Source of the DNA: Dehalococcoidales bacterium
GTDB taxonomy: Bacteria > Chloroflexota > Dehalococcoidia > Dehalococcoidales > E44-bin46
Reading direction: 5' to 3'
Length of the DNA: 40,577 bases
NCBI GenBank assembly: GCA_034430355.1
Contig: DAOUFA010000080.1
Coordinates: 1-40,577 of the forward strand
Shown: one piece after another, positions 8,129-35,967 of the stretch
How the letters are laid out: every line of letters begins with the position of its first letter
How positions within the stretch are numbered: position 1 is the first letter of the stretch
Position numbers and translations under genes: made by a program
The notes under the pieces: model-generated
What the model was told of the DNA's origin: nothing
Databases searched by the model: none
What the model saw: only the letters and a program-made list of their open reading frames with translations

Positions 8129-10291
8129 TTAAGAGAGCATGACCCGGGCATCGACTACCACATACCCTTTATCTTGCTCTAGTGCCTTCACTGGATTGAG
8201 GTCCAGGTCCGCTATTTGTGGTAAGTCTGCCACCATTGCTGAGACCCTTAGCAAGAGTCCCTCAAGGGCCTTTATATCACAGGGCTTCGATCCCCGCCAG
8301 CCCTCAAGAAGTTGATAAGTCTTGACTGAGCGGACCATCTCATAAGCATCAACGTCAGTCAGCGGATGAATGCGGAAGGTGACGTCTTTAAATAACTCGG
8401 CCTGTGTCCCACCCATACCGAACATAATCAGTGGCACAAAAGAGGGGTCCTGAGTTACACCAACAATTACCTCGGTCCCCCCACGTATCATTTGTTGAAC
8501 AGTGACGCCTTGCATCTCTTTTTCTCTCCCGATAAGGGTCAGTCGCTTCTTGATTTGCCTAAATGCCTGTTCTACTTCTCTCTGCGAGCGAAGGTCAAGA
8601 ATTACGCCTCCAACTTCTGTTTTATGGGCTATTGTGTCTGAGAGCAGCTTCACAGCCACGGGGAAGCCGATTTCTTCAGCTGCCTGGACAGCCTCTTCGG
8701 TAGTCGCCACTGACTTCGACTGCACCAAGCGAATTCCATAGCAGTCAAGAAGCTCAGTGACAGAAATAGCATCTAGCCACAAGGGTCGAGCTGGGCTCCT
8801 CTCTAAAGCCCTGGCGACTACCTGCTCAGCCTTCTTTCTATCGGTGCTCACTATCTCTGGAATTATCCCCTTTGGTCTCCTTAGCCAGTCATTGTATTCG
8901 CAAGCCTTGGCGACGGCCGTGGCTGTAGCTTCAGGGAAAGCAAAAGAGGGAACGCAATACTCTTCTTCGGAGCCCAGTTGGATGGAGGCGCTGCGCGAGC
9001 CCATAAATGAAGCCACCAGGACCTTACCTCGTCGGCGAAACTCCGGAGCTACCTTCTGGATGGCACCAGCTACCAATTCCAGCTGTGTACGTATCGGCGG
9101 GATAAAAATGACAATCATAATGTCTATACAATCATCTTGTGCCACAAGTTCCAGTGCCTGGCTATACTGGTCGGCAGTAGCTTCAGCAGTCATGTCGATG
9201 GGGTTAGTAAGACTGGCACGAGGTTGCAGGAAATTCTTCAGCCCTGAATAGGTCTTCCCCGAAAGAGACGGCAATTCAAGGCCTCTAGCAGCACAGGCGT
9301 CAGCAGTTAAAATTCCTGGGCCACCACCATTGGTAAGTATAGCCACTCTTCTTCCCGAAGGTATGGGTTGATGGGACAGCAGGTTGGCTACGTCAAATAG
9401 CTCCTCCAACGTGTCTACCCGGATTATCCCAGTCCGCGTAAACAGTGCTTCGGAAGCCACCTCAGCAGTAGCTAGTGCTCCCGTATGAGATGCAGCCGCC
9501 CTGGAGCCCGCCAGAGTGCGTCCGCTTTTTACGGCTACAATTGGCTTGGTAGGCGTTATGCTCTGGGCTATGCGAGCAAACTTTCCGGGGTTGCCGAAAG
9601 ATTCAAGGTAAAGGAGGATAAGATCAGTAGCTGGGTCTTCCTCCCAGTATCGCAACAGGTCGTTGCTGGATACATCAGCCCTGTTTCCTATACTGACAAA
9701 ACTAGAGAGACCAATATTCAAATTCTTCGCATATTCTAGAATAGCAACTCCGAGGGCACCGCTCTGAGTACCCAGAGCAATGTTGCCGGTAGGAGGAAAA
9801 ACTGGGGAGAAAGTGGCATTCATATTGACCTCTGGGTCGGTATTGATGACCCCCATGCAGTTGGGGCCTATCAGGCGCATTCCATAGCGGCGAGCTATAC
9901 TAAGTATCCTTTCTTGCTTTTCTATCCCTTCAGCCCCACTTTCTCCAAAGCCGGCTGATATTACCACAACGCCTCGCACACCCTTCTGCCCGCACTGTTC
10001 CATCACCTGGTGGACTGTTTCTGCGGGGACGATAACCACCGCCAGGTCCACTTCTCCCGGAATATCTAAAACAGAGGGGTATGTCTTTACGGATGCCACT
10101 ACGTCAGCATTTGGGTTCACCGGATAGACAACGCCCTTAAAGTCCTGTTGCAATATGTTATGGAAAAGCTTATTACCGATGGTTCCCCGTCGTCGCGAAG
10201 CTCCGATAACAGCTATGGAACGGGGCTTGAGCAAAGCTCTCAACGAAGCTGTGGTGGCAATCTTATCCTGATCTCCAAACGTCTCCTTCAT
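8129..10291 (-). CDS. Acetate--CoA ligase (ADP-forming) / NDP-forming acyl-CoA synthetase, fused alpha-beta
   Basis: The product is 720 aa. It has an N-terminal CoA-binding domain (SIAVIGASRRRGTIG), a succinyl-CoA-ligase-like flavodoxin domain and a C-terminal ATP-grasp domain. Confidence 0.85.
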   Translation of the reverse strand: MKETFGDQDKIATTASLRALLKPRSIAVIGASRRRGTIGNKLFHNILQQDFKGVVYPVNPNADVVASVKTYPSVLDIPGEVDLAVVIVPAETVHQVMEQCGQKGVRGVVVISAGFGESGAEGIEKQERILSIARRYGMRLIGPNCMGVINTDPEVNMNATFSPVFPPTGNIALGTQSGALGVAILEYAKNLNIGLSSFVSIGNRADVSSNDLLRYWEEDPATDLILLYLESFGNPGKFARIAQSITPTKPIVAVKSGRTLAGSRAAASHTGALATAEVASEALFTRTGIIRVDTLEELFDVANLLSHQPIPSGRRVAILTNGGGPGILTADACAARGLELPSLSGKTYSGLKNFLQPRASLTNPIDMTAEATADQYSQALELVAQDDCIDIMIVIFIPPIRTQLELVAGAIQKVAPEFRRRGKVLVASFMGSRSASIQLGSEEEYCVPSFAFPEATATAVAKACEYNDWLRRPKGIIPEIVSTDRKKAEQVVARALERSPARPLWLDAISVTELLDCYGIRLVQSKSVATTEEAVQAAEEIGFPVAVKLLSDTIAHKTEVGGVILDLRSQREVEQAFRQIKKRLTLIGREKEMQGVTVQQMIRGGTEVIVGVTQDPSFVPLIMFGMGGTQAELFKDVTFRIHPLTDVDAYEMVRSVKTYQLLEGWRGSKPCDIKALEGLLLRVSAMVADLPQIADLDLNPVKALEQDKGYVVVDARVMLS

Positions 10292-10542
10292 GACCTCCTC
10301 CTGTAAGCCTAATTGACCCTGAAGGAATTATATGCCAAAGCAAGTTTTGTGTCCATTGTGCTACCAAACCACTGGGGAAGTAGGCAGCTTTCTCGATTCC
10401 TTAACTGGCACAATCTGGCGTTTTGTGTTGGTGAATTTTATCACTGTAATGGAAATCGCTACTGGTGCGGTGGCATGCCTAAAACCCATTCCTATAGAAA
10501 AAGATAGAACCTCTGAACGAGAAGTCCTACCTATTAAACGAC

Positions 10543-10552
10543 TTGGCTCCCC
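10543..10552. repeat. 10-nt copy of the tRNA-Asn 3' end (TTGGCTCCCC); candidate distal att site
   Basis: It is identical to 21078-21087 in direct orientation. It coincides with the point where composition turns AT-rich. Confidence 0.5.
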
Positions 10553-10879
10553 CTGGTTGACTTATTCCGCAACTATAAGCTTGAAATCCAGTTTACCTTA
10601 GTAGAGTTAAAACGATTGTTTGAAGTATTCAATTTGTCTCCAATAACCCATGCTTGACCTTCCCCCCAATGAATAATTCTGAAAAACCCCCAAACAGCAC
10701 GAGGCGTGCAGAAAGGTGGAAAGTTTAAAAATTGAGAACCAGAACCGAGGGACGTTACTATTCCTTTTGCGTCAGGTCGGTTTGGCATATGGATAGTTGG
10801 AAGTTTATTCATCAATAATAACTTGATAAGCCCACTGGCTTTATGATTTATAGGTCAAACCTGTATAATACTATACGCT

Positions 10880-11527
10880 ATGAGTCTATTGTGGATTATT
10901 ATCATAGGTTTAGGCGCAAGTATTATCGGCGGTCTTATTTCGGGTCGTCTCGTGATACGAAAGGTTACACACGATACAAAGCGCCTATACGCAAGGCAAA
11001 TTAAAGAAGACTTCGAGATAATGTCTATTCTTCTATTTATGTCAGCCAGAAGCTTCTTAGAATTAATCGGGTATCACATTAAAGATTTTGACGCAAATCA
11101 ACCTAAAATGATTGAAAAAGTGAATCAAACCATAGTAAATCAAGTTCGAAAGGAATACCAACGTGAGTATGAACGAAGATTATTAAAATATGATTTAAGT
11201 AAACTCATATCTCAAGTTGAAGAGCTCGTGAAAGACATTACGAACGAGACTACTGGCTTTAATAGCTTTTTTAGTAAGTATCCCTTACACGCATCTTATT
11301 TCGACGCACTTTATCAAGCGTCCTCTGCGGTAGAACTGATAATTTTTTGGCGAAATCAGATACCAGAGCAAATTAACGAAGAGCAAAAGCGGATTTGTAT
11401 ATCTAATGTAACCTCTTACCTGCTAGATGTTCTCGATTGTCTACTCAAAGCTAGCTCGGAGATAAAGTATTATTGTAAGGCGAAAGCGTGGACGTGGCGG
11501 CTTATCGTGCCGACTACTCGAACTTGA
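10880..11527 (+). CDS. Hypothetical membrane-anchored protein (215 aa)
   Basis: An N-terminal TM helix (LLWIIIIGLGASIIGGLISG) is followed by a helical soluble domain. I recognise no family. TATAAT lies at 10864-10869, only about 10 nt before the ATG. Confidence 0.55.
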   Translation: MSLLWIIIIGLGASIIGGLISGRLVIRKVTHDTKRLYARQIKEDFEIMSILLFMSARSFLELIGYHIKDFDANQPKMIEKVNQTIVNQVRKEYQREYERRLLKYDLSKLISQVEELVKDITNETTGFNSFFSKYPLHASYFDALYQASSAVELIIFWRNQIPEQINEEQKRICISNVTSYLLDVLDCLLKASSEIKYYCKAKAWTWRLIVPTTRT

Positions 11528-11658
11528 CCATCTAATTATCCGCATAAGACCGATAGATACGTCATCCCATCAAGCAAATACATTGCATATACTCTATTGA
11601 CCTGCCCCCCGAAAAGGAGTCCAGGTAAAATGTTAGCAATATTAGATGTATGATTTTG

Positions 11659-12183
11659 TTATTCAGATATTCCCAGCTGTTGCTTTAATTCTGGTTTCAT
11701 CTTTTTTAAATCCAGTTGCCCCCTTGTGTAGGCCTCCTTAAGTCGTGCTTCTATATCTTTCCAACCCATTCGGTCAAATTCACCATGTCTGCTGAGTAAA
11801 TGGGCAAAATAGACAACATTGTTTATTGACAGATTGGAAACATTGCGATGATAATGGTTCATATCACGATAGGCTGTTTTGGCAGGCTTTTTTGAGTGTG
11901 TGAAGCTAAGTTCATCAAGATAGTTTGCACTTAGCAGGGCATAATCAAAATCATATTTTATGTCCTTACGTAAAGAAACGAAGGCAGCGACAATATCGAG
12001 CAAATTAGACTTATCGTCAGAAATCTCCCACAAAGAGAGAGCATTGTTATCCGCTCTTAAATCCCTGATAATACACGAAGGCAACTCACCTTCTTTAAGC
12101 CACGAAGGAAATTGTGTTCTCTCCCAATTAATGTTGCTATATATTGCACGTAGAAAGTAAGGCATTTCATTAATATGTTTCAA
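11659..12183 (-). CDS. Hypothetical protein, third gene of the three-gene operon (174 aa from TTG 12183; 168 aa if ATG 12165)
   Basis: The ORF overlaps or abuts the stop of the upstream gene at 12170-12172. No motif was recognised. Confidence 0.6.
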   Translation of the reverse strand: MKHINEMPYFLRAIYSNINWERTQFPSWLKEGELPSCIIRDLRADNNALSLWEISDDKSNLLDIVAAFVSLRKDIKYDFDYALLSANYLDELSFTHSKKPAKTAYRDMNHYHRNVSNLSINNVVYFAHLLSRHGEFDRMGWKDIEARLKEAYTRGQLDLKKMKPELKQQLGISE

Positions 12184-12967
12184 GCCCCTTAATTGCGACT
12201 TTAATATTATTCCTCAAAATTGGAACAGTATCTGTTTCAAAAAGCATACGGAGTTGAGGTAAAGCCCTATTGTCATCTAAGAATGAAAGCCCACTAACCG
12301 CTCCGTCACGAATAATTGCAGATTCATTTTTAATTGAGTCTATGAGAAGCTCATAGCGTTCATATTTAGTATTTTGGTCTTCTATTCTGCCTAATGCTTT
12401 TAGTGTTTCGGATATTATGTCATCATCAAGGATTTGTTTCCTGATTAGGTTATTAATAATGCGGACAGCAGGTTTCCCGTTAGCTCGAATCAGTCCATCA
12501 AGAGCATTCGTGAACTCATATGCGATATCCGTATCAAATTCTTCGTTACTGTAAGCGTCAAAAATGCTGATGGCACTTTGTTCTATTTGGAGGTCACTAG
12601 CTGATATTTGAGGGGTATAGGTAGAAACTGTATCGAAAACTTCATGATAGGAATGCGTTTGTATACGACTTTGTATTGTATAGAATCTACCGGCAAGTAA
12701 CATAATTCGTTCACAGATTGATTCATCAGGTAAAAATTTTTGACCAAAACCAGAGGCGGAAAATACTGTCGCGCTCTCTGCGTCTCTATTGAACGAATAC
12801 AAATAATTTCCACGGATTTCACTCGGCAAAAATATACCACTAACTTGCGTTGCTATTTGGGGATTCTCTTGAAACAGAAAATAGCAGTACCCACAATGCT
12901 TTATTTGAGGCAAATTAGTTACTTGATATTCATAAAGAGTAGAAGCTTCAAGTTCAGTAGTGAACAT
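12170..12967 (-). CDS. Hypothetical protein with C-terminal HEAT-like repeats, second gene of the operon (265 aa)
   Basis: The ATG lies 1 nt after the upstream stop. The C-terminal third (ETLKALGRIEDQN...RDGAVSGLSFLDDNRALPQLRMLFETD) looks like HEAT/PBS-lyase repeats. The N-terminal two thirds are unrecognised. Confidence 0.6.
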   Translation of the reverse strand: MFTTELEASTLYEYQVTNLPQIKHCGYCYFLFQENPQIATQVSGIFLPSEIRGNYLYSFNRDAESATVFSASGFGQKFLPDESICERIMLLAGRFYTIQSRIQTHSYHEVFDTVSTYTPQISASDLQIEQSAISIFDAYSNEEFDTDIAYEFTNALDGLIRANGKPAVRIINNLIRKQILDDDIISETLKALGRIEDQNTKYERYELLIDSIKNESAIIRDGAVSGLSFLDDNRALPQLRMLFETDTVPILRNNIKVAIKGLETY

Positions 12968-12968
12968 A

Positions 12969-13730
12969 CTATTTATCTCCGTCAGTCGATATTTGGTCTC
13001 CGAGTTTACTTAACTCTTGAAGCAATAGAGTTAGTTTCTCTTTTGAGAATATTTTCTTGTTAGACTGATGGGTACTAATATCAAGTTCCAAACGACTGGC
13101 AAAATAACTTCTTTTTTCTTGAATTACTTCCGACTTCTCTCCAACAAACAATCCAAATCCCATAGCGCGTACTGCGCTCCATTTGGAAAGCCTGTTAATA
13201 ATAAGGCCTGGTTCAACAGTTGATTGTATTGGGCGGTTGATTTGATAAAAGAAATCAGTTGAATTTTCAATATCTATTGTTACATGATGTAAAAGAGTAG
13301 ATAATTGCTTGTAGGCTGATGCTTTATTGTCATTGACAATTAAGGAAACTGAACCTAGAGCTATCCTATTAGTTTCTGGTACAGCATCTGAAGATAACCA
13401 ATCATTCATCATCTTAAAAAACTGACCTTTGGTTTCGAATAAAGAACCAAGAGTAGGAAATGAGGCAGTTTTCTGTTGTTGTTCTTGTGATGGTGATAAG
13501 GTCCAGTTAATCCTTAAAGGGTCAGACATGTGAGTGAGTGACCCAAGAACGACGGTACCCTCCTCAATAATTATATTAGCTCTCGGTTGAGAATCAACCT
13601 TCTCTGGTTTTTCTCCAGTAAGAGTTTCCCAAAGAGGTATTACCGTTTCGATGGGTTTGGCTCTGAACAACGTAAGACGAAGCGATTCTACTTGCCAATC
13701 AATCACTTTTTTACCCTTTAAGGAATTCAA
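12969..13730 (-). CDS. Hypothetical protein, first gene of the operon (253 aa from TTG 13730; GTG 13706 is an alternative)
   Basis: This is a long ORF in AT-rich DNA, where stop codons are frequent. It is tightly coupled to the next gene. No motif was recognised. Confidence 0.6.
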   Translation of the reverse strand: MNSLKGKKVIDWQVESLRLTLFRAKPIETVIPLWETLTGEKPEKVDSQPRANIIIEEGTVVLGSLTHMSDPLRINWTLSPSQEQQQKTASFPTLGSLFETKGQFFKMMNDWLSSDAVPETNRIALGSVSLIVNDNKASAYKQLSTLLHHVTIDIENSTDFFYQINRPIQSTVEPGLIINRLSKWSAVRAMGFGLFVGEKSEVIQEKRSYFASRLELDISTHQSNKKIFSKEKLTLLLQELSKLGDQISTDGDK

Positions 13731-13776
13731 TTATACAGTCTAATGCTTAGTTTTTCTGGTGTCAACATGATTAACC

Positions 13777-13785
13777 ATTATACCA
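13777..13785 (-). promoter_or_regulatory. Extended -10 element (TGgTATAAT) for the three-gene operon
   Basis: The minus strand reads TGGTATAAT about 45 nt upstream of the first start codon. The -35 is weak. Confidence 0.4.
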
Positions 13786-13907
13786 CATAGGTTGTAATAC
13801 TCAGATTCGTATTAATTAGGGTGGCACAAATGGTATTAATCTACATTTGAATTTTATCACCTTTAGTTCAATATGACAAATATTCAAATTCCTTGCTATT
13901 GACGGTA

Positions 13908-13936
13908 TTGACAAGCTATTTAGTTCTTAGTATATG
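13908..13936 (+). promoter_or_regulatory. Putative promoter facing the noncoding region (TTGACA, 17 nt, TATATG)
   Basis: The -35 is consensus and the spacer is 17 nt. It diverges from the operon promoter, and no convincing ORF lies downstream. Confidence 0.4.
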
Positions 13937-14188
13937 TACGTCGTCAGCATTTATGGCACAACCTGATAATGAGCACTTTAACCGGTTGAATTACCCCTGT
14001 CAAGCTCCCTCACTTTGTGGTTATGCTCTCTCTTGGCTTGTAGTGTTCTTCGCTTTGCCTCCTTTCTCCTGTTGATTATACCCTGACCCTGCCAGACCTT
14101 CCTAATGTTCCTAACCTATTGTGTCCAGTCTCAGGGGTTCACTCCGTAGAGTAATTTCTTGACACCATAAAAAGTGGACATAAAACGC

Positions 14189-14217
14189 TTTGGCTTTTGC
14201 AGAGAATGTGCTATACT
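14189..14217 (+). promoter_or_regulatory. Putative promoter with extended -10 (TTGGCT ... TGcTATACT)
   Basis: TGCTATACT lies at 14209-14217 and a TTGGCT -35-like hexamer lies 16 nt upstream. It immediately precedes the GC-enriched structured segment. Confidence 0.4.
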
Positions 14218-14223
14218 AATAGT

Positions 14224-14593
14224 AGTGGGGCAGTGCCCCGTAGAACATTAATAATTGAATAGGGTAAATGCAGAGCTGTTCCGAAGCCTAAAGACTCCTC
14301 ATATCGTTCTCGAAAGAGAACCGTAAAGAGGACTCCTTCAGGTTCCGGCAGATGATATGCACCAAGGCGAAACAGAGCATCGACAAGATTGAGGGCGGGC
14401 AAGAGAAATCTCCCCAAATTCAGTCTGGCACGGCCTCTGGCAGTCAAAGTGAGCCTCACCTGAATTTAGGAGCTCTGTCACCTGACAAAGACTATTAGGC
14501 TTTGTGGTGTTCTGCATTTATTATCAGTAGTAGCTTACTGATAAACAAAAAGGAGTATTTGAAGCCAATGGGCTTTGGGTTCTCCTTTTTTTA
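14224..14593 (+). ncRNA. Candidate structured noncoding RNA (or structured replication-origin region), class unknown
   Basis: The segment runs from a promoter to a terminator with no credible ORF, and its G+C is visibly higher than the surrounding island. Hand-found helices are GGGGC-agt-GCCCC (14227-14239), GTTCTC-GAAA-GAGAAC (14306-14321, extendable by CCTC/GAGG), AAATTCAG/CTGAATTT (14416-14423 with 14460-14467) and TTATCAGTA-n6-TACTGATAA (14521-14544). Confidence 0.35.
14550..14593 (+). terminator. Rho-independent terminator
   Basis: AAGGAG...AAGCC-aatg-GGCTT...CTCCTT forms a hairpin followed by T7. On the opposite strand it is also followed by TTTTTGTTT, so it may act in both directions. 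Confidence 0.55.
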
Positions 14594-14623
14594 TTTTATA
14601 TACGGTTCTTAAGAAGATTTGTG

Positions 14624-14800
14624 ATGCAATCGAAAAGCAAGAAAACTGTAATCGAACAAACCTACCGAGAGTCCGGTAGCGAAACTGAAGAGCTACGGGA
14701 TAATGATAGGCTGTCTAAGTTTTTCGAAATTTTAATGCAAATTGACCAGAGGCAAAAACGGGATGGGAAGAATAACCGAAGTTCAAATAGTCCCTATTAA
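14624..14800 (+). CDS. Possible 58-aa ORF (MQSKSKKTVIEQTYRESGSETEELRDNDRLSKFFEILMQIDQRQKRDGKNNRSSNSPY)
   Basis: It is below the ORF-track cut-off and begins just after the terminator. It overlaps the SpoVG-like start in another frame. The RBS is weak. Confidence 0.25.
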   Translation: MQSKSKKTVIEQTYRESGSETEELRDNDRLSKFFEILMQIDQRQKRDGKNNRSSNSPY

Positions 14801-15059
14801 GCCAAAGGATGGACTCATAGCTTTCGCGAGCTTTGTTTTGGACGACAGCCTATATTTAGGCTCTATTGGTATCGCTACAAGGCTTCAAGGGGGCTACCGG
14901 CTAATCTATCCTACCAAGCGAACTGGTAATAAGGATATAAACGTCTTCCATCCCATTAAAAAGGCATTCGCTGAAGCAGTGGAAGACGAAGTAGTAAAAC
15001 GACTTGAAGATGTAATGAATAAAGGCAATGATAGACACAATAGTATTAACCCTCAATGA
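14742..15059 (+). CDS. SpoVG-family nucleic-acid-binding protein (likely start ATG 14763)
   Basis: ITEVQIVPIKPKDGLIAFASFVLDDSLYLGSIGI...GGYRLIYPTKRT...NVFHPIKKAFAEAVEDEV follows the SpoVG pattern (ITDVRIRK..G.mKA.aSIt.D..fvvh.I.v....G.f.amPsrk......d.aHPI....r..i..av). Confidence 0.65.
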   Translation: MTRGKNGMGRITEVQIVPIKPKDGLIAFASFVLDDSLYLGSIGIATRLQGGYRLIYPTKRTGNKDINVFHPIKKAFAEAVEDEVVKRLEDVMNKGNDRHNSINPQ

Positions 15060-16161
15060 GAATAGCTTCACAATCGTTGAACATGATAAGTTCAGCCCTT
15101 CCACAGAGGGACTATATTCCTCTTCCTATTACCGGCTGGGCGGGCGTGCGAATCTAATCTGCAAGCAGAACCCGACTTCTAGGGAACTGGCAGCCGGCAT
15201 CTATAAGCCCAGGCTTTCGGCTACCAAGCGACTCAATAGACATCGTAACTTCGAGATTACCCTAAAGGTTGAGTTTTCAATCCCCAAGCTCCTATTCGGC
15301 AATAACTTTGACGAGCTAGAAGACGCCGATTTCCCCCTGGTCGTCTCACGGCTAAGAGAAAAGCTCAGGGACATGGGCGTTCTCGTGACAGAGCCGATTT
15401 TATCGAGCGCCCCTATATCCAGTATCCATTTCTCAAAGAACGTGCCCCTTGTTGACTACACGACGCCCTACACCTATTTGGAGAGACTGTCTAGGATTAA
15501 CCTTAACCAACGGCTAGACCTGAATCAAACGGACTTCCGGAACGAAGGGCACAGCCTGAAATTTCGGGCTAATTCTTTCGAGGTAGCTTTCTACGATAAG
15601 ATGAAGGACTTGAGCAAGGCGAAGATTAGCGAAAAACGTGCTGAAGAAACTGAGAACGTTATCCAGATGAAGCTGTTTGAAAAACTGGAAATCAGCAAAC
15701 CCTTCGAAGTCCTTAGAATGGAAGTAAGGCTAAACAAAAGGCAAAAGCTGAAGCAGGTCTTGAAGAATATCGGCATTGAGACAGAGCCTACGTTCCAATT
15801 CCTATTCAGAAAAGACATAGCTCAAAAGGTTCTTCTTCACTATATGGGTGTGATAGAGAAGGGCTATCCTTTGATTCTCTCATACGATTGCAAAGACGCC
15901 AAAGACTTCCTATCTGATTTCATAATCCATAACCCAAAAGCAGGGCTTAAAAAGGCAATACAGATGCTAGGTTTACGAGTCCTTATAGACCAAGTGGGCG
16001 TGCGAGAATTCAGGGAAATCACGAGAAAATACGGCAAGGCGAACTGGTATCGGCTAAACAAAGAGATGCAGTCTCTTAACTATCCCCAAAGTAAGGATGT
16101 GTTTATGACCTTACGGCAATGCCTAGAAGAATTCAAGCCCTTAAAGCTTATTGACTTTTAA
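15028..16161 (+). CDS. Replication initiation protein, rolling-circle type (filamentous-phage gene II / Phage_CRI-like)
   Basis: The N-terminus MIDTIVLTLNE... resembles the MIDMLVLRLPF start of Ff gene II proteins. The size is about 377 aa. The gene overlaps the SpoVG-like gene by 32 nt. Assignment is by eye only. Confidence 0.5.
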   Translation: MIDTIVLTLNENSFTIVEHDKFSPSTEGLYSSSYYRLGGRANLICKQNPTSRELAAGIYKPRLSATKRLNRHRNFEITLKVEFSIPKLLFGNNFDELEDADFPLVVSRLREKLRDMGVLVTEPILSSAPISSIHFSKNVPLVDYTTPYTYLERLSRINLNQRLDLNQTDFRNEGHSLKFRANSFEVAFYDKMKDLSKAKISEKRAEETENVIQMKLFEKLEISKPFEVLRMEVRLNKRQKLKQVLKNIGIETEPTFQFLFRKDIAQKVLLHYMGVIEKGYPLILSYDCKDAKDFLSDFIIHNPKAGLKKAIQMLGLRVLIDQVGVREFREITRKYGKANWYRLNKEMQSLNYPQSKDVFMTLRQCLEEFKPLKLIDF

Positions 16162-16179
16162 GAAAAAAGGTGTATAATA

Positions 16180-16395
16180 ATGTTAATCAATGTAAAAGGT
16201 AGATTTATGGAAGAGAAATATTACACACCTCAAGAAATTGCCTCTATTCTGAAAGTAGCTTATATGACGGTTTATCGCTGGATTCGAGCCGGTAAACTGG
16301 AAGCTTATCAGGTGCAGAAACAATACAGGATAAGAGAAGCCGACTTCAACAAGTTCATGGAAGCTAACAAAAAGGTAACAAGTAAAGGAAGCTAA
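16180..16395 (+). CDS. Excisionase-family / MerR-superfamily HTH DNA-binding protein (likely start ATG 16207)
   Basis: YYTPQEIASILKVAYMTVYRWIRAGKLEAYQVQKQYRIREADFNKFME is the classic helix-turn-helix_17/excisionase signature. Confidence 0.7.
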   Translation: MLINVKGRFMEEKYYTPQEIASILKVAYMTVYRWIRAGKLEAYQVQKQYRIREADFNKFMEANKKVTSKGS

Positions 16396-16396
16396 A

Positions 16397-18199
16397 ATGA
16401 ATAATAGCGATTCTATTCTCATGGAGAACGTAAAGAGGGGAATCGAGAAAGGAATAATTAGCCTTTCCGATAACGAGTCAAGAATAACCTATAAGTGCAG
16501 TCGTGAGTACTCCGTAAGCTTCAAGAATCCAGAAGAGAAGGTAAGAGCTTCCTATTTCGTTGAACTGGTTGAAGACTACCGCTATCCTCAAGAAAGAATC
16601 GGGCTTGAGGTTACCATTCCAAGAAGGACACCGGAAGACAGGGCTGATATTGTTATATTTGAAGATGACACACTGAAAAAGCCGTATCTTGTAGTGGAAT
16701 GCAAGAAAGATGGGATTTCAGATGCAGAATTCAAGCAGGCAATAGAGCAGGTATTCGGTAATGCTAACAGCCTAAGAGCAAAATTTGCCTCTGTAATTGC
16801 CGGAACAACCAGGACTGTCTTCGATGTGGCTGGTTTTACCCCAGGCGAAAGAGAAAAGAACGTAATCTCGGATATTCCTGTCAAATATGGTCAAACCCCT
16901 AAATACAGGTTCATAAAGGGCGAAAAGGATAAAGAGCTTAAGGTAGTCTTGAAGGAAGACCTTATCAGAACGCTTCAGAAGGCTCACGATACCGTATGGC
17001 AAGGGGGTAAACTAGCACCTACCACTGCTTTTGATGAAATCTCAAAGCTTTTGTTCTGCAAGCTTCAAGATGAAACGGAAAGCACCATTACCTCAACGGG
17101 AAAGCCCTACAAGTTCCAGGTGGGAACATACGAGACTGCAAACGAAGTATTTGACCGGATAAATAAGATTTACCAAGAAGCAAAACAAAAGGATGCCGAG
17201 GTCTTTAAGGAAGATATCAGGTTGGAACCGAAAATTGTTTACGCCGTTGTGGAACACTTGCAAAGTATCAACTTCAATGAGACTGACCTGGATGCAAAAG
17301 GGGTTGCCTTCGAGAAGTTCATGGAAGATTTCTTTAAGGGGAAAATGGGGCAGTTCTTTACGCCGAGAGAGCTGATTAGATTCTGTGTAAAGATGATGAA
17401 TCCTCAAACGAACCAACTGATATTAGACCCTGCTTGTGGCTCTGGTGGTTTCTTGCTTAATGCGATGGATTTAGTACGAGAGCAAGCCAAGAAAGAGTAT
17501 GGCGATGGCACTATTTCAGCTTATAGAATGTGGTATGACTTTGCCAGAGAAAACTTGTACGGCATAGATATTAACGACCAGATTGCTAGGGTATGCAAGA
17601 TGAACATGATTCTCCACGATGATGGTCATTCCAACGTTATTAGCGTTGACAGTCTAGTAGATGTAAACGAGATTAACCGAATTCACCCAAAGTTCAAAGA
17701 GAATGCTTTCGATTTAGTCCTGACTAACCCGCCCTTCGGAGCAACAGCAAAAGAGTCAGAAAAGCCTTATCTTAAGAATTACAATTTAGGCAAAGATAGG
17801 AAGACGCAGAAGACGGAGATACTATTTATTGAGCAATGCCTCAAATTCCTAAAGACAGGAACGGGCAAGCTAGCTATCGTCTTACCTGACGGTATCTTGA
17901 CCAATAGCTCTTTGCAATACGTGAGAGACTTCATAATGGAACGAACTCAAATTCTAGCTATTGTCTCTTTACCTCAATTTGCCTTTACCCATTTCGGAGC
18001 TGGTGTTAAAAGCTCCCTCGTATTCTTGCGAAAGAAAGACCTCAATGAAAGACCAGACAATTACCCTATCTTCATGGCTATCGCTGAGCACATTGGCTAT
18101 GACGCAACTGGTAGAAAAGAGCCTGTTAATGATTTAGATACGATTCATACCGAGTATCAAACATTCTTGGTAAATCAAAAGGACTATAAGGGCTGTTAG
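16397..18199 (+). CDS. N6-adenine DNA methyltransferase (gamma class, HsdM-like) with N-terminal PD-(D/E)xK HSDR_N-type domain
   Basis: Motif I is ILDPACGSGGFLL and motif IV is LVLTNPPFGA. The N-terminal 150 aa contain DRADIVIF...KPYLVVECKK, a D...ExK nuclease-like signature. Confidence 0.85.
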   Translation: MNNSDSILMENVKRGIEKGIISLSDNESRITYKCSREYSVSFKNPEEKVRASYFVELVEDYRYPQERIGLEVTIPRRTPEDRADIVIFEDDTLKKPYLVVECKKDGISDAEFKQAIEQVFGNANSLRAKFASVIAGTTRTVFDVAGFTPGEREKNVISDIPVKYGQTPKYRFIKGEKDKELKVVLKEDLIRTLQKAHDTVWQGGKLAPTTAFDEISKLLFCKLQDETESTITSTGKPYKFQVGTYETANEVFDRINKIYQEAKQKDAEVFKEDIRLEPKIVYAVVEHLQSINFNETDLDAKGVAFEKFMEDFFKGKMGQFFTPRELIRFCVKMMNPQTNQLILDPACGSGGFLLNAMDLVREQAKKEYGDGTISAYRMWYDFARENLYGIDINDQIARVCKMNMILHDDGHSNVISVDSLVDVNEINRIHPKFKENAFDLVLTNPPFGATAKESEKPYLKNYNLGKDRKTQKTEILFIEQCLKFLKTGTGKLAIVLPDGILTNSSLQYVRDFIMERTQILAIVSLPQFAFTHFGAGVKSSLVFLRKKDLNERPDNYPIFMAIAEHIGYDATGRKEPVNDLDTIHTEYQTFLVNQKDYKGC

Positions 18200-18208
18200 G
18201 CTGCTAGA

Positions 18209-19615
18209 ATGAAGTGCTTTAAGGTATTCTATGACGATATTGAAGGCAGACTGGATTGCTTCTTTTATCAGCCTGAATTAGTTCAACTAGAGCATAAAGT
18301 AAAAAGGATTACTGATAGAAAGCTGGGGGACTACATACTAGGCATTTCGGGCGGAGCTACTCCAAACAAGAATGAAAGCGAGAAGTACTATTCTGAATCC
18401 GGCATTCCGTTTTTGAGGGTGCAGAATGTTACCAGTGCAGGCTTGAGTCTCGAAAACTGTATATTCATCAACCAAGAAACGCACAACAACATGCTTAAGA
18501 GAAGCCAGGTAGAAGAAGGCAACCTGATTACTAAGATTACTGGCGTGGGAAGAATGGCTGTCTCTGCGGTTGCTCCACCAAGCTTTGAGGGGAACATTAA
18601 CCAGCACTTGGTTGTCATAAAGACGCAAAGCACTGAGGTAAGCAAAGTACTGGCAACATTCTTAAATTCTGATATTGGCGAAAGGTTAGCTTTTAGACGC
18701 TCAACCGGTGGCACAAGACCTGCGTTGAATTACGAGGCTTTAAAGACAATTCCTGTTGTATATAGACCTGAAATTGTTGAAATCATGGAGTCAGCTTATG
18801 AGCGCAAAAAACAAAAAGACGAGGAAGCCAAGAAGCTATTAGATTCCTTAAATGGCTTTGTTCTTGAACGTTTGGGGATAAGCTTGCCCGAAATTAATGA
18901 CAAGAGCTGTTTTGTTGTATGGAGTGATGATATAAAGGGGCGGAAGATTAATCCGCAAGCTTATACAGCAAAGCCCAAAGCAATCAGAAGTGCAATTGAA
19001 GGCTCTACATATCCAATTAAAAGACTCTCTGATATTGTAACTCAAAACATATCCGGAGAGTGGGGTGAAGACCCAGTTTTGGTAAAGAAGACAGATGGCC
19101 ATGTCTTATGCAGAGTCCTAAGGAATACTAATTTTGTTAATCAGTATAACCTAAATTTTGAGAACGTAGCGGAACGGCTTATTAGGAAAGACAAATACCA
19201 AAAGATTAGGTTAAAAAAGGGGGATATCTTAATCGAGAAATCAGGTGGTAGTCCAATACAGCCTGTTGGTAGAGTAGCATTGGTCGAGAGTACAAGTGAA
19301 GGATATGCTTTTAGCAATTTTGTTCAATTGATACGGATTAGTGAAGAGTGCATACCGCAATACTTATTCATCTTTTTGAAAGCAGTTTACGCCCTTAATT
19401 ATATGGAGTATTTACAGAATCAAACGACAGGAATAAAGAACCTGATAATGAGTGAGTATCTGTCAATTCCCATACCGATTCCTCCTCTAGAAGTTCAGAA
19501 AGTGATTGCAGACGAAGTTGAGTCAAGAATGCAGAAAGCAGAACAGCTACAAAAGGAAGCCGAACAAGAGGTCGAGAAAGCCAAAGCTGAGGTCGAAAAG
19601 ATAATACTTGGCTAG
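18209..19615 (+). CDS. Restriction-modification specificity subunit (HsdS-like, two target-recognition domains)
   Basis: There are two Methylase_S-like TRDs (…GIPFLRVQNV…, …ILIEKSGGSPIQPVGRVALV…) and a C-terminal coiled coil. The gene starts 10 nt after the methyltransferase gene. Confidence 0.85.
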   Translation: MKCFKVFYDDIEGRLDCFFYQPELVQLEHKVKRITDRKLGDYILGISGGATPNKNESEKYYSESGIPFLRVQNVTSAGLSLENCIFINQETHNNMLKRSQVEEGNLITKITGVGRMAVSAVAPPSFEGNINQHLVVIKTQSTEVSKVLATFLNSDIGERLAFRRSTGGTRPALNYEALKTIPVVYRPEIVEIMESAYERKKQKDEEAKKLLDSLNGFVLERLGISLPEINDKSCFVVWSDDIKGRKINPQAYTAKPKAIRSAIEGSTYPIKRLSDIVTQNISGEWGEDPVLVKKTDGHVLCRVLRNTNFVNQYNLNFENVAERLIRKDKYQKIRLKKGDILIEKSGGSPIQPVGRVALVESTSEGYAFSNFVQLIRISEECIPQYLFIFLKAVYALNYMEYLQNQTTGIKNLIMSEYLSIPIPIPPLEVQKVIADEVESRMQKAEQLQKEAEQEVEKAKAEVEKIILG

Positions 19616-19629
19616 GAGTTGAAGGTATT

Positions 19630-21093
19630 ATGACTAAAGCCGTGATTCTAGCACGTGTATCAACTGTAAGACAGGAAAAGGAAGGGTTGTCGCTGAAAGA
19701 CATTCAGCTTCCAGCTTTAAGAGAGTACGCCCAAAACAAAGAGTTAGCGGTTGAAAGAGAGTTCGTCTTTACTGAGAGTGCTGATTACAAGATAAGAAGA
19801 AAATTCGATGAAATGGTCGAGTATGTCAAAGTCAACAATGACATTAAGACCATTATCGCTTACCGAGTGGATAGGATAACCAGGAACTTCAGGGATGCAG
19901 TTCTGATTGACGAGCTACGTCTTAACCATGACAAGGAAATACACTTTGTTTATGACCGGCTGGTAATTAACAAAAACACAATGGGGAGGGACATTCAGGA
20001 CTGGGACTTAAAGGTATTCCTAGCCAAGCAATACATCAACCGGCTCAAAGAGGATGCCACTAATTCAGCCTCATACATGCTAAGGAATGGTTTACTGCCT
20101 GGCAAAGCGCCTTACGGCTACAAGAATGTGGCTCTAGAAGACAAAAAGAAGTGGGTCGTTACCGAGCCATTTGAAGCTAGAGTCGTTCAGAAAATGTATG
20201 AATGGTATGGCTCCGGTTGCTTTTCTATGCTGGAAGTAAGAAAGAAGCTGAAAGAAGACTTTGACATTGATTTTTCTAAAGGTTTCGTTGACTTCATTCT
20301 CAAGAATCCATTTTATTGTGGGACGATTCAGTATGACGGACAAAAGTATCCCCATAATTACGAGTGTATTATATCTAGAGAGCTATTCGACAAAGTTCAA
20401 CAGGTGAAAGCCGGCTATAACAAGAAGCACTTCAAATTCGCAGGTTTACCTTACCTCTATCGAGGGTTAATCAGGTGTGCTGATTGCGGTTGTATGATTA
20501 CACCGGAAAAGAAAAAAGGCAAGTATGTTTATTACCATTGCACTGAATATAACGGCAAGCATAATGCTAAGTGGCTAAGGGAAGAAGAACTAACCAAGCA
20601 GTTTGCCCAGCTATACAAATCATTACAGATTCCTGAAGATGTAATCGAAGAAATTACGGCTTCATTAAGGAAGTCCCATAAAGACAAAACACAGTTTCAT
20701 CGGACTATGCTTGAAGGCTATCAAAAGGAATACCAGAAATATGAGGCTCGCATTGAAGCCATGTATGAAGACAAACTGGACGGTAGTATTACTCAGAGCG
20801 ACTATAACAAAAAGCGTGAAGAATACCGGACAAAACAGAAGGAAATATCAGATAAGATTAGCAGGCTAGGCTTTGCTGATGAAGAGTATTATTTGACTTC
20901 AGAATATATATTACAGCTTGCTAATAGAGCCTATGAACTATTCATGAGTTCTGAAGCGGAAGAAAAACGGCAACTTTTAAAACTCACACTTCAGAACTTA
21001 AAATTAGAGGGCAAAAAGGTTGAATTTGAACTCGTAAAGCCCTTCGATAAGGTCTTCGCTTGCTCAAGTAGTCAAAGTTGGCTCCCCGAGTAG
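19630..21093 (+). CDS. Large serine recombinase (integrase)
   Basis: The resolvase-type catalytic N-terminus is AVILARVSTVRQEKEG...YRVDRITRN. A recombinase domain, a zinc ribbon (CADCGCMITPEKKKGKYVYYHC) and a coiled coil follow. The last 15 nt overlap tRNA-Asn. Confidence 0.9.
   Translation: MTKAVILARVSTVRQEKEGLSLKDIQLPALREYAQNKELAVEREFVFTESADYKIRRKFDEMVEYVKVNNDIKTIIAYRVDRITRNFRDAVLIDELRLNHDKEIHFVYDRLVINKNTMGRDIQDWDLKVFLAKQYINRLKEDATNSASYMLRNGLLPGKAPYGYKNVALEDKKKWVVTEPFEARVVQKMYEWYGSGCFSMLEVRKKLKEDFDIDFSKGFVDFILKNPFYCGTIQYDGQKYPHNYECIISRELFDKVQQVKAGYNKKHFKFAGLPYLYRGLIRCADCGCMITPEKKKGKYVYYHCTEYNGKHNAKWLREEELTKQFAQLYKSLQIPEDVIEEITASLRKSHKDKTQFHRTMLEGYQKEYQKYEARIEAMYEDKLDGSITQSDYNKKREEYRTKQKEISDKISRLGFADEEYYLTSEYILQLANRAYELFMSSEAEEKRQLLKLTLQNLKLEGKKVEFELVKPFDKVFACSSSQSWLPE
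21078..21090. repeat. att-like core at the tRNA-Asn 3' end (TTGGCTCCCCGAG)
   Basis: This is the reference copy of the repeats at 7980-7992 (13/13) and 10543-10552 (10/10). Confidence 0.5.
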
Positions 21094-21153
21094 GACTCGA
21101 ACCTACAACCTAGCGGTTAACAGCCGCCCACTCTACCATTGAGCTATCGGGGA
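21079..21153 (-). tRNA. tRNA-Asn (anticodon GTT), CCA encoded
   Basis: In the reverse complement the acceptor is TCCCCGA/TCGGGGA, the anticodon stem GGCGG/CCGCT, the loop CTGTTAA and the T-loop TTCGAGT. The 3' end is GCCA. Confidence 0.85.
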
Positions 21154-22611: not shown

Positions 22612-25194
22612 ATGGTAAAAGGTAAGTCTAAACGCATAGCCATAATACTACTGGTAATCTCTCTTTTATTGCCGGGATGCGCGAGGCAGGAAGAACATAA
22701 AATTGAAACTGAAAACGTCGTTTCGCTGACAGAACTCAACTTTGAGCTTGAAAACTTTATCGGGGAAAACATCTGGACTTCAGGTTTTTACGCAGATGAT
22801 AGATTTACAGACGACGGTGTTGCCTTTGTGGTGCCTGACTTTCATATGATGGTAATCGACGAAGGATTACCGGACTATTCATTTGCCAGACTTGATGGAG
22901 ATTTGCCTCCCTACGATATGAATGAGGCTGAGATACTTGTCTATGGTGAAGTAAAAGACTTTGCTCAAACCTACAACGTTTTCACCCTCCTGCCAACACC
23001 TTTGATTACCGTTGACGAATACCGTATTTTGACCCCACCAGTGGAAGCTACCGGGGCAAGGCAAGGCTTCCTTTTACCTACTGCCTGGGGAGGCCCCCTC
23101 CAGCCGAAGCAGGCATTTGCGCAGGAGAATGCCGCTACGCCAACCAAAGCCAAAGACTGCGACCGGGCTCTAATAATAAGTGGTGGTATTGATGCTAACA
23201 ACAATCGGTCGAGGTTTCGGCAGAACATGAGAGCTAAGTACCAAAAACTTAAGGAACTTGGTTTTAGCGATGAGCAGATTGGAGTTCTCTACAACGACGG
23301 CGGGGAAGTAAAAGTAAAAGAGAAGGACGAAAGAAACAATGAAATAGAAAAGAATATCGTTGATGGCAAAGCTTCAAAGCAAAAGATAAAGGAGACCCTA
23401 GAAAAATACAAGGAGGAAATGTCAGCCAGCTGCACCCTGGTTATATTTGTTACCGACCACGGCACCGGTTACAACGATGGGCAAGGGTATCATGGTGCCC
23501 GGCCGGCCTTTTCCGGAACTGACAGTAAGACGAAGACATATCCGGAAAAGACATTCGAAATAGACCTGTGTCGTTATGTTTACGCGTCGGGCGGATTGCT
23601 CAAAATTGAGAGTAAGGAGTGGGATACAGACAAAGATGGCGAGATAGATTTGAAAGCCGAATGTGACACTCGTACAAGAGAATATGTCCTGAAAAGAAAG
23701 ATGCCGGATGGAACATGGAAGGAGATAGGAAGAGCTACCGGTGATACTAAGAAGTGGGGGATAAAATGTAAGATAACAGGCGTAGACTGGAATGCTGATG
23801 GTGATAAGGATGACGACGTAGGTTTTCACGAAGGAATAAACCTGTGGGGAAAAGAAGTCTTGTGGGATGATGAGTTCGCCGAGATGCTTAAATCCCTCCA
23901 CGAGAAGGGAATACATATAGTCGTTGAAATGGCCCAATGTTTTGGCGGGGGATTCGTAGATAATCTCAAGGGAATTGTTGACAAAATTGTTACCTTCTCA
24001 GGCGAAGATACCAAGCACCATAACAGAAAAGATGCCAGTGGAAAGAGGTATGCCGCTGATGAAATGGCGTTTGTGGATAACCTTGCCGGTATAGACCTGA
24101 AAAGCTGGGATAAAGCCTTTGACAAGGCAAAGGAGGTAGACACACAGGAATGGGAAGATGAAGGTAGCTTCTCAGATGAAGAAAACGAGTATAGAAAATG
24201 GGAAAAACCACTAGTCCAAACAGATTCAACCTTTTACGAAGAAGATGGAACCTACACACTTACCCTTAAGATTCCAAAAGGCATGAAAGATAAGGTCTAT
24301 GATATTGAGATTTTCTTCGGTCTTCAGACGCCTAGATGGGATGAGGGTGAAGTCATACAGCTCCCGGAAGGCTTCACAAAAGAGGACATTGCCGGTGGCA
24401 TAAGAATAAAAAGCACTAATCCTTTCCCGTTAACACCCTTAGTATTCAAACTTAAGGGGGCAGCCGGTGCCGAGTCGCTGAGGATTCACCTAACGGATAA
24501 GGAACACAAAAATCTCGGCTACATCACGCCTACAAAAACCACGCCCCCACCTCCAGCCGAGAAGGCATTGGACACCTCTCTTACGCCCAGCGCTCAAAGT
24601 GTCTGGGACGAGTCGGGATGCCACAGTACCCTCACCATCTCCTTCGATGCAATCGACCTCACCGGGGGTGACATGCCAGTTACCAGCGTGGTTCTAAAGG
24701 TAAATGAGGAAGTATGGCACGATTCGAGTAGTATATCTACTGAGCACTACCAGAATTCAGTCTCAAGAGAGGTGGGCTGTGGAGAAATCCTACTTATTGA
24801 GTTGATAGCCACCAACGCCATCGCCCAGACAGTTACGGCCACTGAATCCATCACTACCCCCATACCTCCAGCCCCTGAACCCGAGGAAGTACTGCAGGTC
24901 TCCTCTGCTGCTAGTGCTCACAGCGTCCGCGATGAATCAGGGTGCCGCAGCACCCTCACTATCTCCTTCGATGGCACTGACCTTACCGGAGGCAATTATC
25001 CCGTCACCAGGGTAGTACTGGTGGTAAATGGACAGACCTGGTTCGATTCGGGGAGCATATCTACTGTACACTATCACAACTCTATTGAAACAGAGGCAAA
25101 CTGCGGCGAAACCTTCAACTTCGAGGTGACTGCCACCAACCAAATCGGGCTGACGGCTACCTCTACTGGCTCTATCACTACCCCCATCCCCTAG
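22612..25194 (+). CDS. Secreted lipoprotein with legumain-like (clan CD, C13-type) peptidase domain and two C-terminal tandem beta-rich domains
   Basis: The lipobox is LLLPGC. The His motif is TLVIFVTDHGTG and the Cys motif is IHIVVEMAQCFGGGF. Acidic Ca-binding-like loops (DTDKDGEID, DWNADGDKDDD) lie between them. The C-terminus carries a duplicated module of about 108 aa. Confidence 0.6.
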   Translation: MVKGKSKRIAIILLVISLLLPGCARQEEHKIETENVVSLTELNFELENFIGENIWTSGFYADDRFTDDGVAFVVPDFHMMVIDEGLPDYSFARLDGDLPPYDMNEAEILVYGEVKDFAQTYNVFTLLPTPLITVDEYRILTPPVEATGARQGFLLPTAWGGPLQPKQAFAQENAATPTKAKDCDRALIISGGIDANNNRSRFRQNMRAKYQKLKELGFSDEQIGVLYNDGGEVKVKEKDERNNEIEKNIVDGKASKQKIKETLEKYKEEMSASCTLVIFVTDHGTGYNDGQGYHGARPAFSGTDSKTKTYPEKTFEIDLCRYVYASGGLLKIESKEWDTDKDGEIDLKAECDTRTREYVLKRKMPDGTWKEIGRATGDTKKWGIKCKITGVDWNADGDKDDDVGFHEGINLWGKEVLWDDEFAEMLKSLHEKGIHIVVEMAQCFGGGFVDNLKGIVDKIVTFSGEDTKHHNRKDASGKRYAADEMAFVDNLAGIDLKSWDKAFDKAKEVDTQEWEDEGSFSDEENEYRKWEKPLVQTDSTFYEEDGTYTLTLKIPKGMKDKVYDIEIFFGLQTPRWDEGEVIQLPEGFTKEDIAGGIRIKSTNPFPLTPLVFKLKGAAGAESLRIHLTDKEHKNLGYITPTKTTPPPPAEKALDTSLTPSAQSVWDESGCHSTLTISFDAIDLTGGDMPVTSVVLKVNEEVWHDSSSISTEHYQNSVSREVGCGEILLIELIATNAIAQTVTATESITTPIPPAPEPEEVLQVSSAASAHSVRDESGCRSTLTISFDGTDLTGGNYPVTRVVLVVNGQTWFDSGSISTVHYHNSIETEANCGETFNFEVTATNQIGLTATSTGSITTPIP
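24568..25191 (+). repeat. Tandem duplication (2 x about 324 nt) inside the lipoprotein gene
   Basis: The two units read SAQSVWDESGCHSTLTISFDAIDLTGGDMPVTSVVLKVNEEVWHDSSSISTEHYQNS... and SAHSVRDESGCRSTLTISFDGTDLTGGNYPVTRVVLVVNGQTWFDSGSISTVHYHNS.... Both end in TTPIP, and the similarity is visible at the DNA level. Confidence 0.8.
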
Positions 25195-35813: not shown

Positions 35814-35823
35814 ATCCACCTCC

Positions 35824-35870
35824 ATAAAAATAGACCAAGGGTTTCAGCGGTTAATACTAGACCCTTGGTC
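35824..35870 (-). terminator. Riboswitch expression-platform terminator
   Basis: The minus strand reads AGACCAAGGG-n20-CCCTTGGTCT followed by ATTTTTA. It lies between the TPP aptamer and the thiC RBS. Confidence 0.6.
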
Positions 35871-35877
35871 TAGGTTG

Positions 35878-35967
35878 CTACCGCTTCCCTACGCTCGTAT
35901 TACCAAGATCAGGTTCCCAGGGTTGGCATCAAATCGCCTCTCAGCTTTTGAGCACCCCTAGCGGTTT
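35878..35967 (-). promoter_or_regulatory. TPP (THI-box) riboswitch aptamer
   Basis: The minus strand reads CCGCTAGGGGTGCTC..GCTGAGAGG...AACCCTGGGAACCTGATCTTGGTAATACGAGCGTAGGGAAGCGG. The conserved GGGGUGC, CUGAGA, ACCUGAUCUGGAUAAUGCCAGCG-type and GGGA elements are all present, upstream of thiC. Confidence 0.88.

Follow-up and report, generated by a model that had tools for sequence, protein, structure and literature searches.

In toxin–antitoxin–chaperone (TAC) systems a SecB-like chaperone is combined with a HigBA, HicAB, MqsRA or CmdTA pair; the chaperone stabilises the antitoxin via a disordered addiction element, and its displacement by a phage structural protein leads to toxicity (PMC5105189; bioRxiv 10.1101/2024.02.24.581848). 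Here we describe a three-gene operon, A-B-C, from a Dehalococcoidales bacterium (contig DAOUFA010000080.1; the whole stretch of 40,577 nucleotides (nt) that was analysed is referred to as the window). Like HigBAC, MqsRAC, HicAB-SecB and CmdTAC, it belongs to a set of loci with three co-transcribed genes, in which a constant accessory protein accompanies interchangeable, unrelated toxin–antitoxin (TA) pairs. Comparison with sister operons, and analogy with described systems, point to a self-contained, horizontally mobile, tripartite module of toxin, neutraliser and constant partner, a reading to which we give an even chance of being right. The toxicity of C, its neutralisation by B and the role of A are what we infer from the evidence set out below.

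The three minus-strand open reading frames (ORFs) listed in a preliminary description of this DNA are all present: 12969-13730 (253 amino acids (aa), TTG start), 12170-12967 (265 aa, ATG start) and 11659-12183 (174 aa, TTG start). Homologues of A are mostly ~245–260 aa long and those of C 165–170 aa, beginning MPYFLR, and the sequence AAGGG precedes the GTG codon at 13706. These lengths make it likely that A really begins at GTG 13706, which gives 245 aa, and C at ATG 12165, which gives 168 aa. Gene A would then occupy 12969..13706 (-), with an alternative TTG at 13730 giving 253 aa; gene B, with its ATG start and 265 aa, lies at 12170..12967 (-), and gene C at 11659..12165 (-), with an alternative TTG at 12183 giving 174 aa. 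Read directly on the strand, the TAG stop of A is followed by 1 nt and the ATG of B, and the TAA stop of B by ‘tgaa’ and the ATG of C at 12165. The tight packing claimed earlier thus holds for the 1-nt gap between A and B; between B and C the choice left open before, an overlap or a 4-nt gap, falls to the gap, since with ATG 12165 as the start of C, in keeping with the homologue lengths, the junction is not an overlap.

The trio is conserved. A word-indexed search recovered >168 relatives of A, 53 of B and 60 of C, many of them on common contigs. Pairwise ratios of nonsynonymous to synonymous substitution rates (dN/dS) were 0.13–0.33 for A, 0.15–0.41 for B and 0.05–0.34 for C, and all three genes are under purifying selection. 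The numbers of homologues per ORF (53 to >168) and ratios well below 1 bear out the earlier view that these are not chance ORFs but real genes, and show each to be conserved at the coding level. A scan for A in one genome per species gave 80 loci, 76 of them with a full-length A, and at least 43 of these 76, from differing species and phyla, carry A-B-C in this order, so that the trio is conserved as a unit elsewhere. Three of the 76 have B without C, and the remaining loci other genes or none. Most junctions in the A loci are 4-nt overlaps of the ATGA type, and the trio was seen in metagenomic contigs too. The loci belong to Chloroflexota, Nitrospirota, Cyanobacteria, Planctomycetota, Acidobacteriota, several proteobacterial classes, Verrucomicrobia, Latescibacterota and Gemmatimonadota, plus a Nitrosopumilaceae archaeon; the spread of the A family is sporadic across at least 10 phyla, the archaeon included. 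Intact trios adjoin a hydrogenase operon (locus L001; fetched loci are given by such numbers) and genes of the S-adenosylmethionine cycle (L095), and one lies near a PIN pair and a restriction-type nuclease in a Dehalococcoidales metagenome-assembled genome (MAG; L003). No fourth conserved component emerged, the only recurrent neighbour cluster consisting of generic two-component signalling domains.

The trio also travels with its promoter. When window positions 10301-15100 were compared with the fetched loci by blastn, nucleotide homology to relatives in other phyla delimited a cassette of promoter, A, B and C at 11627..13881 (-), that is, the three genes and ~170 nt upstream. A Nitrospirota MAG (L010) is 84% identical over ~11629-13719 and 76% over 13770-13881, L001 has 74% nucleotide identity over 11627-13800, and the cassette of another Dehalococcoidales MAG (L011) is 81–85% identical to that of the window; outside 11627-13881, within the region compared, there was no nucleotide homology to these loci. 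An extended -10 promoter element, TGTGGTATAAT, lies at 13777..13787 (-) and is conserved in the alignment of the upstream regions, reading TGTG(G/T)TATAAT in the window, L010 and L001, and GTGATATAAT in L011. A second promoter-like site, TTGACA-17-TAGACT at 13737..13765 (-), was found just upstream of the A start in a consensus scan (10/12 matches); it may be incidental, since the relatives do not conserve it. To judge from these alignments, the cassette is a unit of ~2.2 kb that moves between phyla with its own promoter. Adjacent co-transcribed small genes, a promoter of their own and mobility as a unit, the features by which type II TA loci are recognised, are all found in the trio.

What follows A in the other loci is the central observation. 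In loci lacking B-C, A is followed by a different middle gene (130–300 aa, without a Pfam domain) and then by a different last gene, neither of them detected by broadened B and C profiles even at E≤10; middle and last genes swap together, as pairs. The third gene encodes PemK/MazF in one independent locus (E=8e-17; L067-69 are identical), a PIN protein in L013 and L016 (E=4e-4), and a Fic protein with HPYANGNGHAAR in L035 and L039 (E=3.8e-4). In a metagenomic operon of the A family, a PIN protein (a precomputed match) follows a HEAT_2 middle protein. These toxin genes are joined by 4-nt overlaps, and are therefore operon members and not mere neighbours of A. The other third genes belong to further unrecognised families; guesses made by eye for two of them, HEPN-like and retropepsin-like, were not borne out, Pfam giving E=0.08 or nothing and a PDB search nothing. 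On the A tree, A proteins with alternative pairs are interleaved among those linked to B-C, the pair downstream having therefore been replaced repeatedly while A stayed. For example, the A of L059 is 63% identical to that of L051, and is followed by an unrelated pair of 281 and 145 aa where L051 has B-C. Both loci are on chromosomes of Dehalococcoidia MAGs (~10000-12100 in each) and make up the clearest single replacement of a module on a constant A. Because the third gene of sister operons encodes PemK/MazF, PIN or Fic, C appears to occupy the toxin slot, and B that of the cognate partners of the toxins. These annotations in third position strengthen, at the level of sequence, the case for a conflict system.

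The A family is large. A profile of A retrieved 3,773 of 1.84 billion cluster representatives at E≤1e-3, and 2,109 at E≤1e-30, each representative standing for a 50%-identity cluster. Its members are nearly all stand-alone proteins of ~250 aa; longer ones were considered as domain fusions and set aside, their N-terminal extensions being of low complexity and looking like miscalled starts. In the AlphaFold2 (AF2) model of A (pLDDT 93.2, pTM 0.88) two successive halves each form an antiparallel sheet followed by a long helix; hhalign found no sequence similarity between the halves. Foldseek matched A to AdoMetDC/prozyme, archaeal TBP (1mp9, E=7.5e-4) and Bet v1/PYL in the PDB, and to TBP/VETF-type and unnamed proteins in the viral set, with probabilities of 0.94–1.0 to AdoMetDC, TBP and viral TBP-like proteins, and TM-scores of only 0.2–0.5. 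The model, itself a confident one, would place A in a TBP-like pseudo-dimeric fold class without a specific relative, and the assignment is to be read at fold-class level only. At ~30% overall identity the family has ~12 invariant residues (R10, F14, R114, A116, G118, Y154, N157, N171, R172, L173, W176 and D209) and ~28 near-invariant ones, mostly polar and on predicted β-strands.

Sequence profiles of Pfam, NCBIfam, PADLOC, PHROG and the PDB gave nothing significant for A. Eight distant relatives of A, searched in Pfam, NCBIfam, PADLOC and PHROGs, yielded only one borderline match, of residues 151-266 of P0089 to MksE of Pfam, which scored 30.2 bits where 27 is the cut-off. We rejected an identity as MksE/JetB, from Wadjet/Mks condensins: A itself and the seven other relatives have no such match, the operons contain no SMC or kleisin genes, and the fold predicted for A is one of β-sheet and helix, not a winged helix. 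The match of P0089 is probably spurious.

Protein B consists of two unlike halves. Residues 181-255 match Pfam HEAT_2 (E=1.3e-6, 29 bits against a gathering cut-off of 27.7), and a search of the PDB found alphaRep/HEAT proteins (E=8.5e-4; designed HEAT proteins), in agreement with the HEAT-like region noticed before at the C-terminus of the middle protein; HEAT_2 is a repeat class and not a functional family. The HEAT half (residues 141-265) is conserved, whereas residues 1-140 are hypervariable and rich in indels, with deletions of 13 and 34 residues in close relatives, and cannot be aligned across the family; invariant columns begin only at D147. The N-terminal half evolves two to three times faster (dN/dS 0.38–0.70 against 0.14–0.24 in the HEAT half) and is probably disordered. 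Its only near-invariant positions in the close family are S9 and T10, within E-A-S-T at residues 7-10. An [A/S/E]-S-T element occurs in the first 100 residues of 29 of 42 B-type proteins, against ~9 expected from shuffles, a comparison made post hoc and among related sequences; neither the reversed TS, taken as a control, nor the element in non-B middle proteins was in excess. The element is only a lead, from sequence, for a putative site of docking, modification or cleavage. No docking motif common to all middle proteins was found, the sampler settling on FEDGMES, a motif of the B subfamily.

Protein C is predicted to be a small α/β protein (AF2 model, pLDDT 78.7) with no fold match in the PDB at E<0.5 (Foldseek), and on the model it would be an orphan fold. 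An alignment of 45 sequences (20–83% identity) has S44 and H106 in every member, with W14, D35, L43, A61 and N103 at least 90% conserved; the conservation suggests an active site that is probably centred on Ser44/His106, helped by Asp35 and Asn103. Searches of C and 45 relatives in Pfam, NCBIfam, PADLOC, PHROGs and PDB sequence profiles gave nothing significant, except that C matched phrog_10743, whose function is not known, weakly over the full length (E=2e-4). Searches of the PDB with close and with broad alignments of A, B and C yielded designed HEAT proteins only. A single hhalign comparison of the C profile with the alternative third-gene protein of L056 found no relationship. The trio can thus still be described, as it was at the outset, as a single co-translated unit of proteins without a match in current libraries: A and C show no recognised signature (nothing significant in library and PDB sequence-profile searches beyond the weak PHROG match of C), and none of the three proteins has confident homology to a known metabolic or structural family.

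Whether the module serves in defence was addressed through its neighbours. Restriction–modification (RM) systems adjoin the cassettes of the window, L005, L092 and L051, and other cassettes adjoin integrases, transposases, a NACHT protein or a casposon-like Cas1-PolB element. Many of the 150 nearest neighbours at 25 loci are core metabolic or housekeeping genes, and ~5 match defence models (three DNA methylases and two RhuM/PDC-S05). The ‘classic defence neighbourhood’ of the preliminary description is seen beside the window cassette and several others, where RM systems stand, and holds only modestly across the family, with ~5 of 150 neighbours. PADLOC-DB v2.0.0 held no match for A, B or C at E≤1. 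Because the cassettes land both in mobile or defence contexts and among housekeeping genes, their distribution resembles that of TA cassettes, which may serve addiction, defence, or both; the trio, too, may have an anti-phage role or be a matter of plain TA addiction.

Two of these neighbourhoods had features of their own. In L092 (774-8023) genes for a 768-aa N6_N4 methylase and a 901-aa ResIII helicase-nuclease, a type III-like RM pair, lie directly upstream of A-B-C on the same strand, with a ParA gene and a DUF559 (Vsr-like) gene nearby, which suggests a defence cluster borne on a plasmid or an integrative and conjugative element. In L008 (3475-9306) an operon of the A family, consisting of A and a 191-aa gene, is next to a gene for a 516-aa Cas1 homologue; a large gene there has a faint precomputed match to family-B DNA polymerase (DNA_pol_B_2), and the layout is casposon-like.

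Under the reading of the trio as toxin, neutraliser and constant partner, C would be a growth-arresting effector of new fold, and B its cognate neutraliser or adaptor, whose HEAT solenoid holds C and whose fast-evolving N-terminal half is the labile or recognised part. A would be the constant partner that controls the stability of B or senses a trigger. The trigger, possibly a phage component, a nucleic acid bound on the TBP-like saddle of A, or loss of the element, would titrate A or destabilise B and so release C, and the resulting arrest of the cell would amount to abortive infection or post-segregational killing. An antitoxin–toxin pair is suggested because the second and third genes change together, and an antitoxin or adaptor role for B because a labile variable half and a conserved binding half fit it. 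Several observations weigh against this proposal. The dozen or so invariant polar residues of A resemble a site for ligand binding or catalysis more than the surface of a chaperone, and A has nothing SecB-like about it: neither A nor B nor C matched SecB in Pfam at E≤1, and the PDB structures to which Foldseek matched A or C include no SecB. PDB profiles, Foldseek and the family libraries revealed no recognisable toxin fold or motif in C, and Pfam no DNA-binding or known antitoxin domain in B. Of the toxins in sister operons, MazF comes from one independent locus only, and the Pfam scores of PIN and Fic are just below gathering thresholds. The enrichment of defence genes among the neighbours is modest, as the counts above show, and neither A nor C was found in phage, plasmid or IMG/VR collections, the IMG/VR scans having used short peptide patterns that may miss distant relatives.

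The invariant residues of A lead to a different, rather unlikely proposal, that of a defence system in which A uses a TBP-like saddle or pocket to sense a nucleic acid or small molecule, or to act as an enzyme, B serves as a HEAT scaffold for recognising a phage protein or relaying the signal, and C is activated, not de-repressed, on infection. Such an arrangement would follow the logic of CBASS-, Pycsar- and retron-type systems, where the first gene is conserved and the effectors are interchangeable; the RM systems beside several loci and the ~12 invariant and ~28 near-invariant, mostly polar positions of A also speak for it. Moreover, TBP-like domains occur in RNase HIII, where they bind RNA–DNA hybrids, and as fusions to RNase LS toxins (PMC3710099), and in DSR2 a cavity made of HEAT repeats binds a phage protein (PMC11263360). 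However, the alternative units look like complete pairs with classical TA toxins, and MazF, PIN and Fic normally need a bound antitoxin, not an activator; Pfam, PADLOC, NCBIfam and PDB profiles gave A no signature of a nucleotide cyclase, an NTPase or any other generator of a signal, and the neighbourhood enrichment for defence genes is weak.

The position of A as the first gene recalls omega-epsilon-zeta and paaR-paaA-parE (cited in PMC8832971), and A might on this model be the transcriptional autorepressor of a three-gene TA operon, like omega or PaaR; the TBP-like saddle is a DNA-binding fold, and the middle proteins have no recognisable DNA-binding domain that could take this part. We consider it improbable: invariant candidate contact residues would predict a conserved operator, yet none was shared upstream of A among 78 loci, the best motifs scoring 7.2–7.8 bits against 6.7–7.5 in shuffles and being scattered in position. 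A protein of 245 aa with invariant residues in such number would be an uncommon TA regulator, and Pfam gave no helix-turn-helix (HTH), ribbon-helix-helix (RHH) or AbrB signature in A. It is most improbable that the trio is no conflict system at all but a housekeeping or accessory complex, concerned with HEAT-dependent assembly or of lyase type like cyanobacterial CpcE/NblB, with toxin-like neighbours by coincidence. Many loci do lie among housekeeping genes, and B has faint NCBIfam matches to NblB and CpcE (E ~0.01–0.02, 14–15 bits), but we rejected that identity for B, as these scores are far below the cut-offs of 300–330 bits and represent generic HEAT noise. The sporadic spread over at least 10 phyla and an archaeon, near-identical cassettes in unrelated phyla, and toxin genes that follow A with 4-nt overlaps also argue against it.

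A link between the trio and a structured noncoding locus upstream, considered in the preliminary description, was not upheld. The 740 nt at 13881-14620, between the A promoter and a SpoVG-like gene, hold no convincing ORF; Rfam gave no match even at E≤1, and the minus-strand fold is only somewhat better than those of shuffles (z = -2.65). Nucleotide homology ends at ~13881, and blastn found the stretch conserved beside the cassette in none of the relatives, so that by sequence it is part of the host island and not of the trio.

This island is a stretch of low GC content at ~10.3-21 kb of the window, with 36–38% in the trio region against ~50% in the flanks. It encodes a large serine recombinase (Resolvase, Recombinase and Zn_ribbon_recom domains, 487 aa) at 19630-21093, whose gene ends 15 nt inside a tRNA-Asn(GTT) gene (21079-21153) on the opposite strand; this overlap and the GC dip suggest an element integrated at tRNA-Asn. 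No convincing att direct repeats bounding the island were found. The neighbours of the trio noted before, an RM module and a convergent gene whose product has a hydrophobic N-terminus (215 aa, 10880-11527), are as described. The former comprises a 600-aa fusion of HSDR_N_2 (PD-(D/E)xK) nuclease and N6 DNA methylase (16397-18199, ~2.7 kb from the trio) and, directly after it, a 468-aa specificity (S) subunit (18209-19615). There is no separate R subunit at this module (16397-19615), and its layout is closer to type IIB/IIG (BcgI-like) enzymes than to a classical type I system. Between it and the noncoding stretch (14742-16395) the gene for a SpoVG-like protein (105 aa, E=4.8e-8) overlaps one whose 377-aa product has no family match, and the next encodes an HTH_17 (excisionase-type) protein; the three probably serve the replication or regulation of the island itself. 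An integrative element with an RM module is a fair description of the whole. Elsewhere in the window, an 860-aa ORF just beyond the island, at 22612-25194 (+), has no Pfam match at E≤0.001, and a thiamine pyrophosphate (TPP) riboswitch (70 bits) at 35869-35969 (-) lies upstream of a 436-aa minus-strand ORF (34515-35825).

Tentatively, and as something possible more than probable, we propose that the A family is the hallmark of a large superfamily of tripartite conflict modules, so far unrecognised, in bacteria and some archaea. Its TBP-like pseudo-dimer would be the universal trigger-sensing or stabilising partner for interchangeable neutraliser–toxin pairs, the version in the window being a new Ser/His toxin fold, C, held by a HEAT neutraliser, and the whole a second, SecB-independent TAC solution. 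If this is true, sense could be made of several thousand three-gene loci of environmental bacteria that now count as ‘hypothetical’, most of them from phyla with few cultured members (Chloroflexota, Nitrospirota, Planctomycetota, Acidobacteriota and Cyanobacteria, for example). Modular toxin systems would gain a further constant partner in A, C would represent a new fold among toxins, and B would be a case of a HEAT solenoid acting as neutraliser or sensor. The modules would also offer a handle on how one protein controls unrelated toxins (MazF, PIN, Fic, C), a question that SecB-based TAC systems have answered only in part. Swappable partners of A would make re-engineering as hybrid defence modules possible; HigC has reportedly been combined with CmdTA in this way before.

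Full-text literature searches did not find the A-B-C architecture. Toxin modules that have a constant third partner are known as such; the components found here are not, nor is the recruitment of a TBP-like protein or of a HEAT-repeat middle protein to such a module. For B a role like that of the HEAT repeats of DSR2, which form a cavity binding a phage protein (PMC11263360), is possible, but DSR2 combines them with a SIR2 NADase in one large polypeptide, without homology to A or C, and the HEAT region of B covers only ~120 residues. The TBP-like domains of RNase HIII and of RNase LS/LsoA-type toxins share the fold class of A (Foldseek) and set a precedent in a defence toxin (PMC3710099); there is no detectable sequence relationship, and A is a free-standing double module. 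With omega-epsilon-zeta and paaR-paaA-parE the trio shares the order of extra first gene, neutraliser and toxin (PMC8832971), whereas their regulators are small RHH or HTH proteins with defined operators and A is a TBP-like protein of 245 aa, for which no conserved operator was found.

Type II TA systems such as MazEF, VapBC and Phd-Doc/Fic are likewise small, coupled, self-promoted and mobile cassettes scattered in chromosomes and mobile elements, and sister operons of the A family end in a MazF-, PIN- or Fic-type toxin after its cognate partner. They differ in lacking the obligatory extra first gene of 245 aa and the long middle proteins (180–300 aa) without DNA-binding domains; B and C, moreover, belong to no known antitoxin or toxin family, and it is only the positional equivalents of C in sister operons that fall into a recognised toxin superfamily. 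The TAC systems, with which we began, come nearest, and the disordered recognition segment of the TAC antitoxin may be comparable to the variable half of B. The pairs, however, are B/C, MazF, PIN, Fic and others, B and C matching no HigBA, HicAB, MqsRA or CmdTA family, and an element like ChAD that is common to all middle proteins was not found here. Moreover, A is not SecB-like in sequence or fold and is encoded first, where the TAC accessory is encoded last. By analogy, the trio and the TAC systems would be two solutions of the same kind, without common descent.

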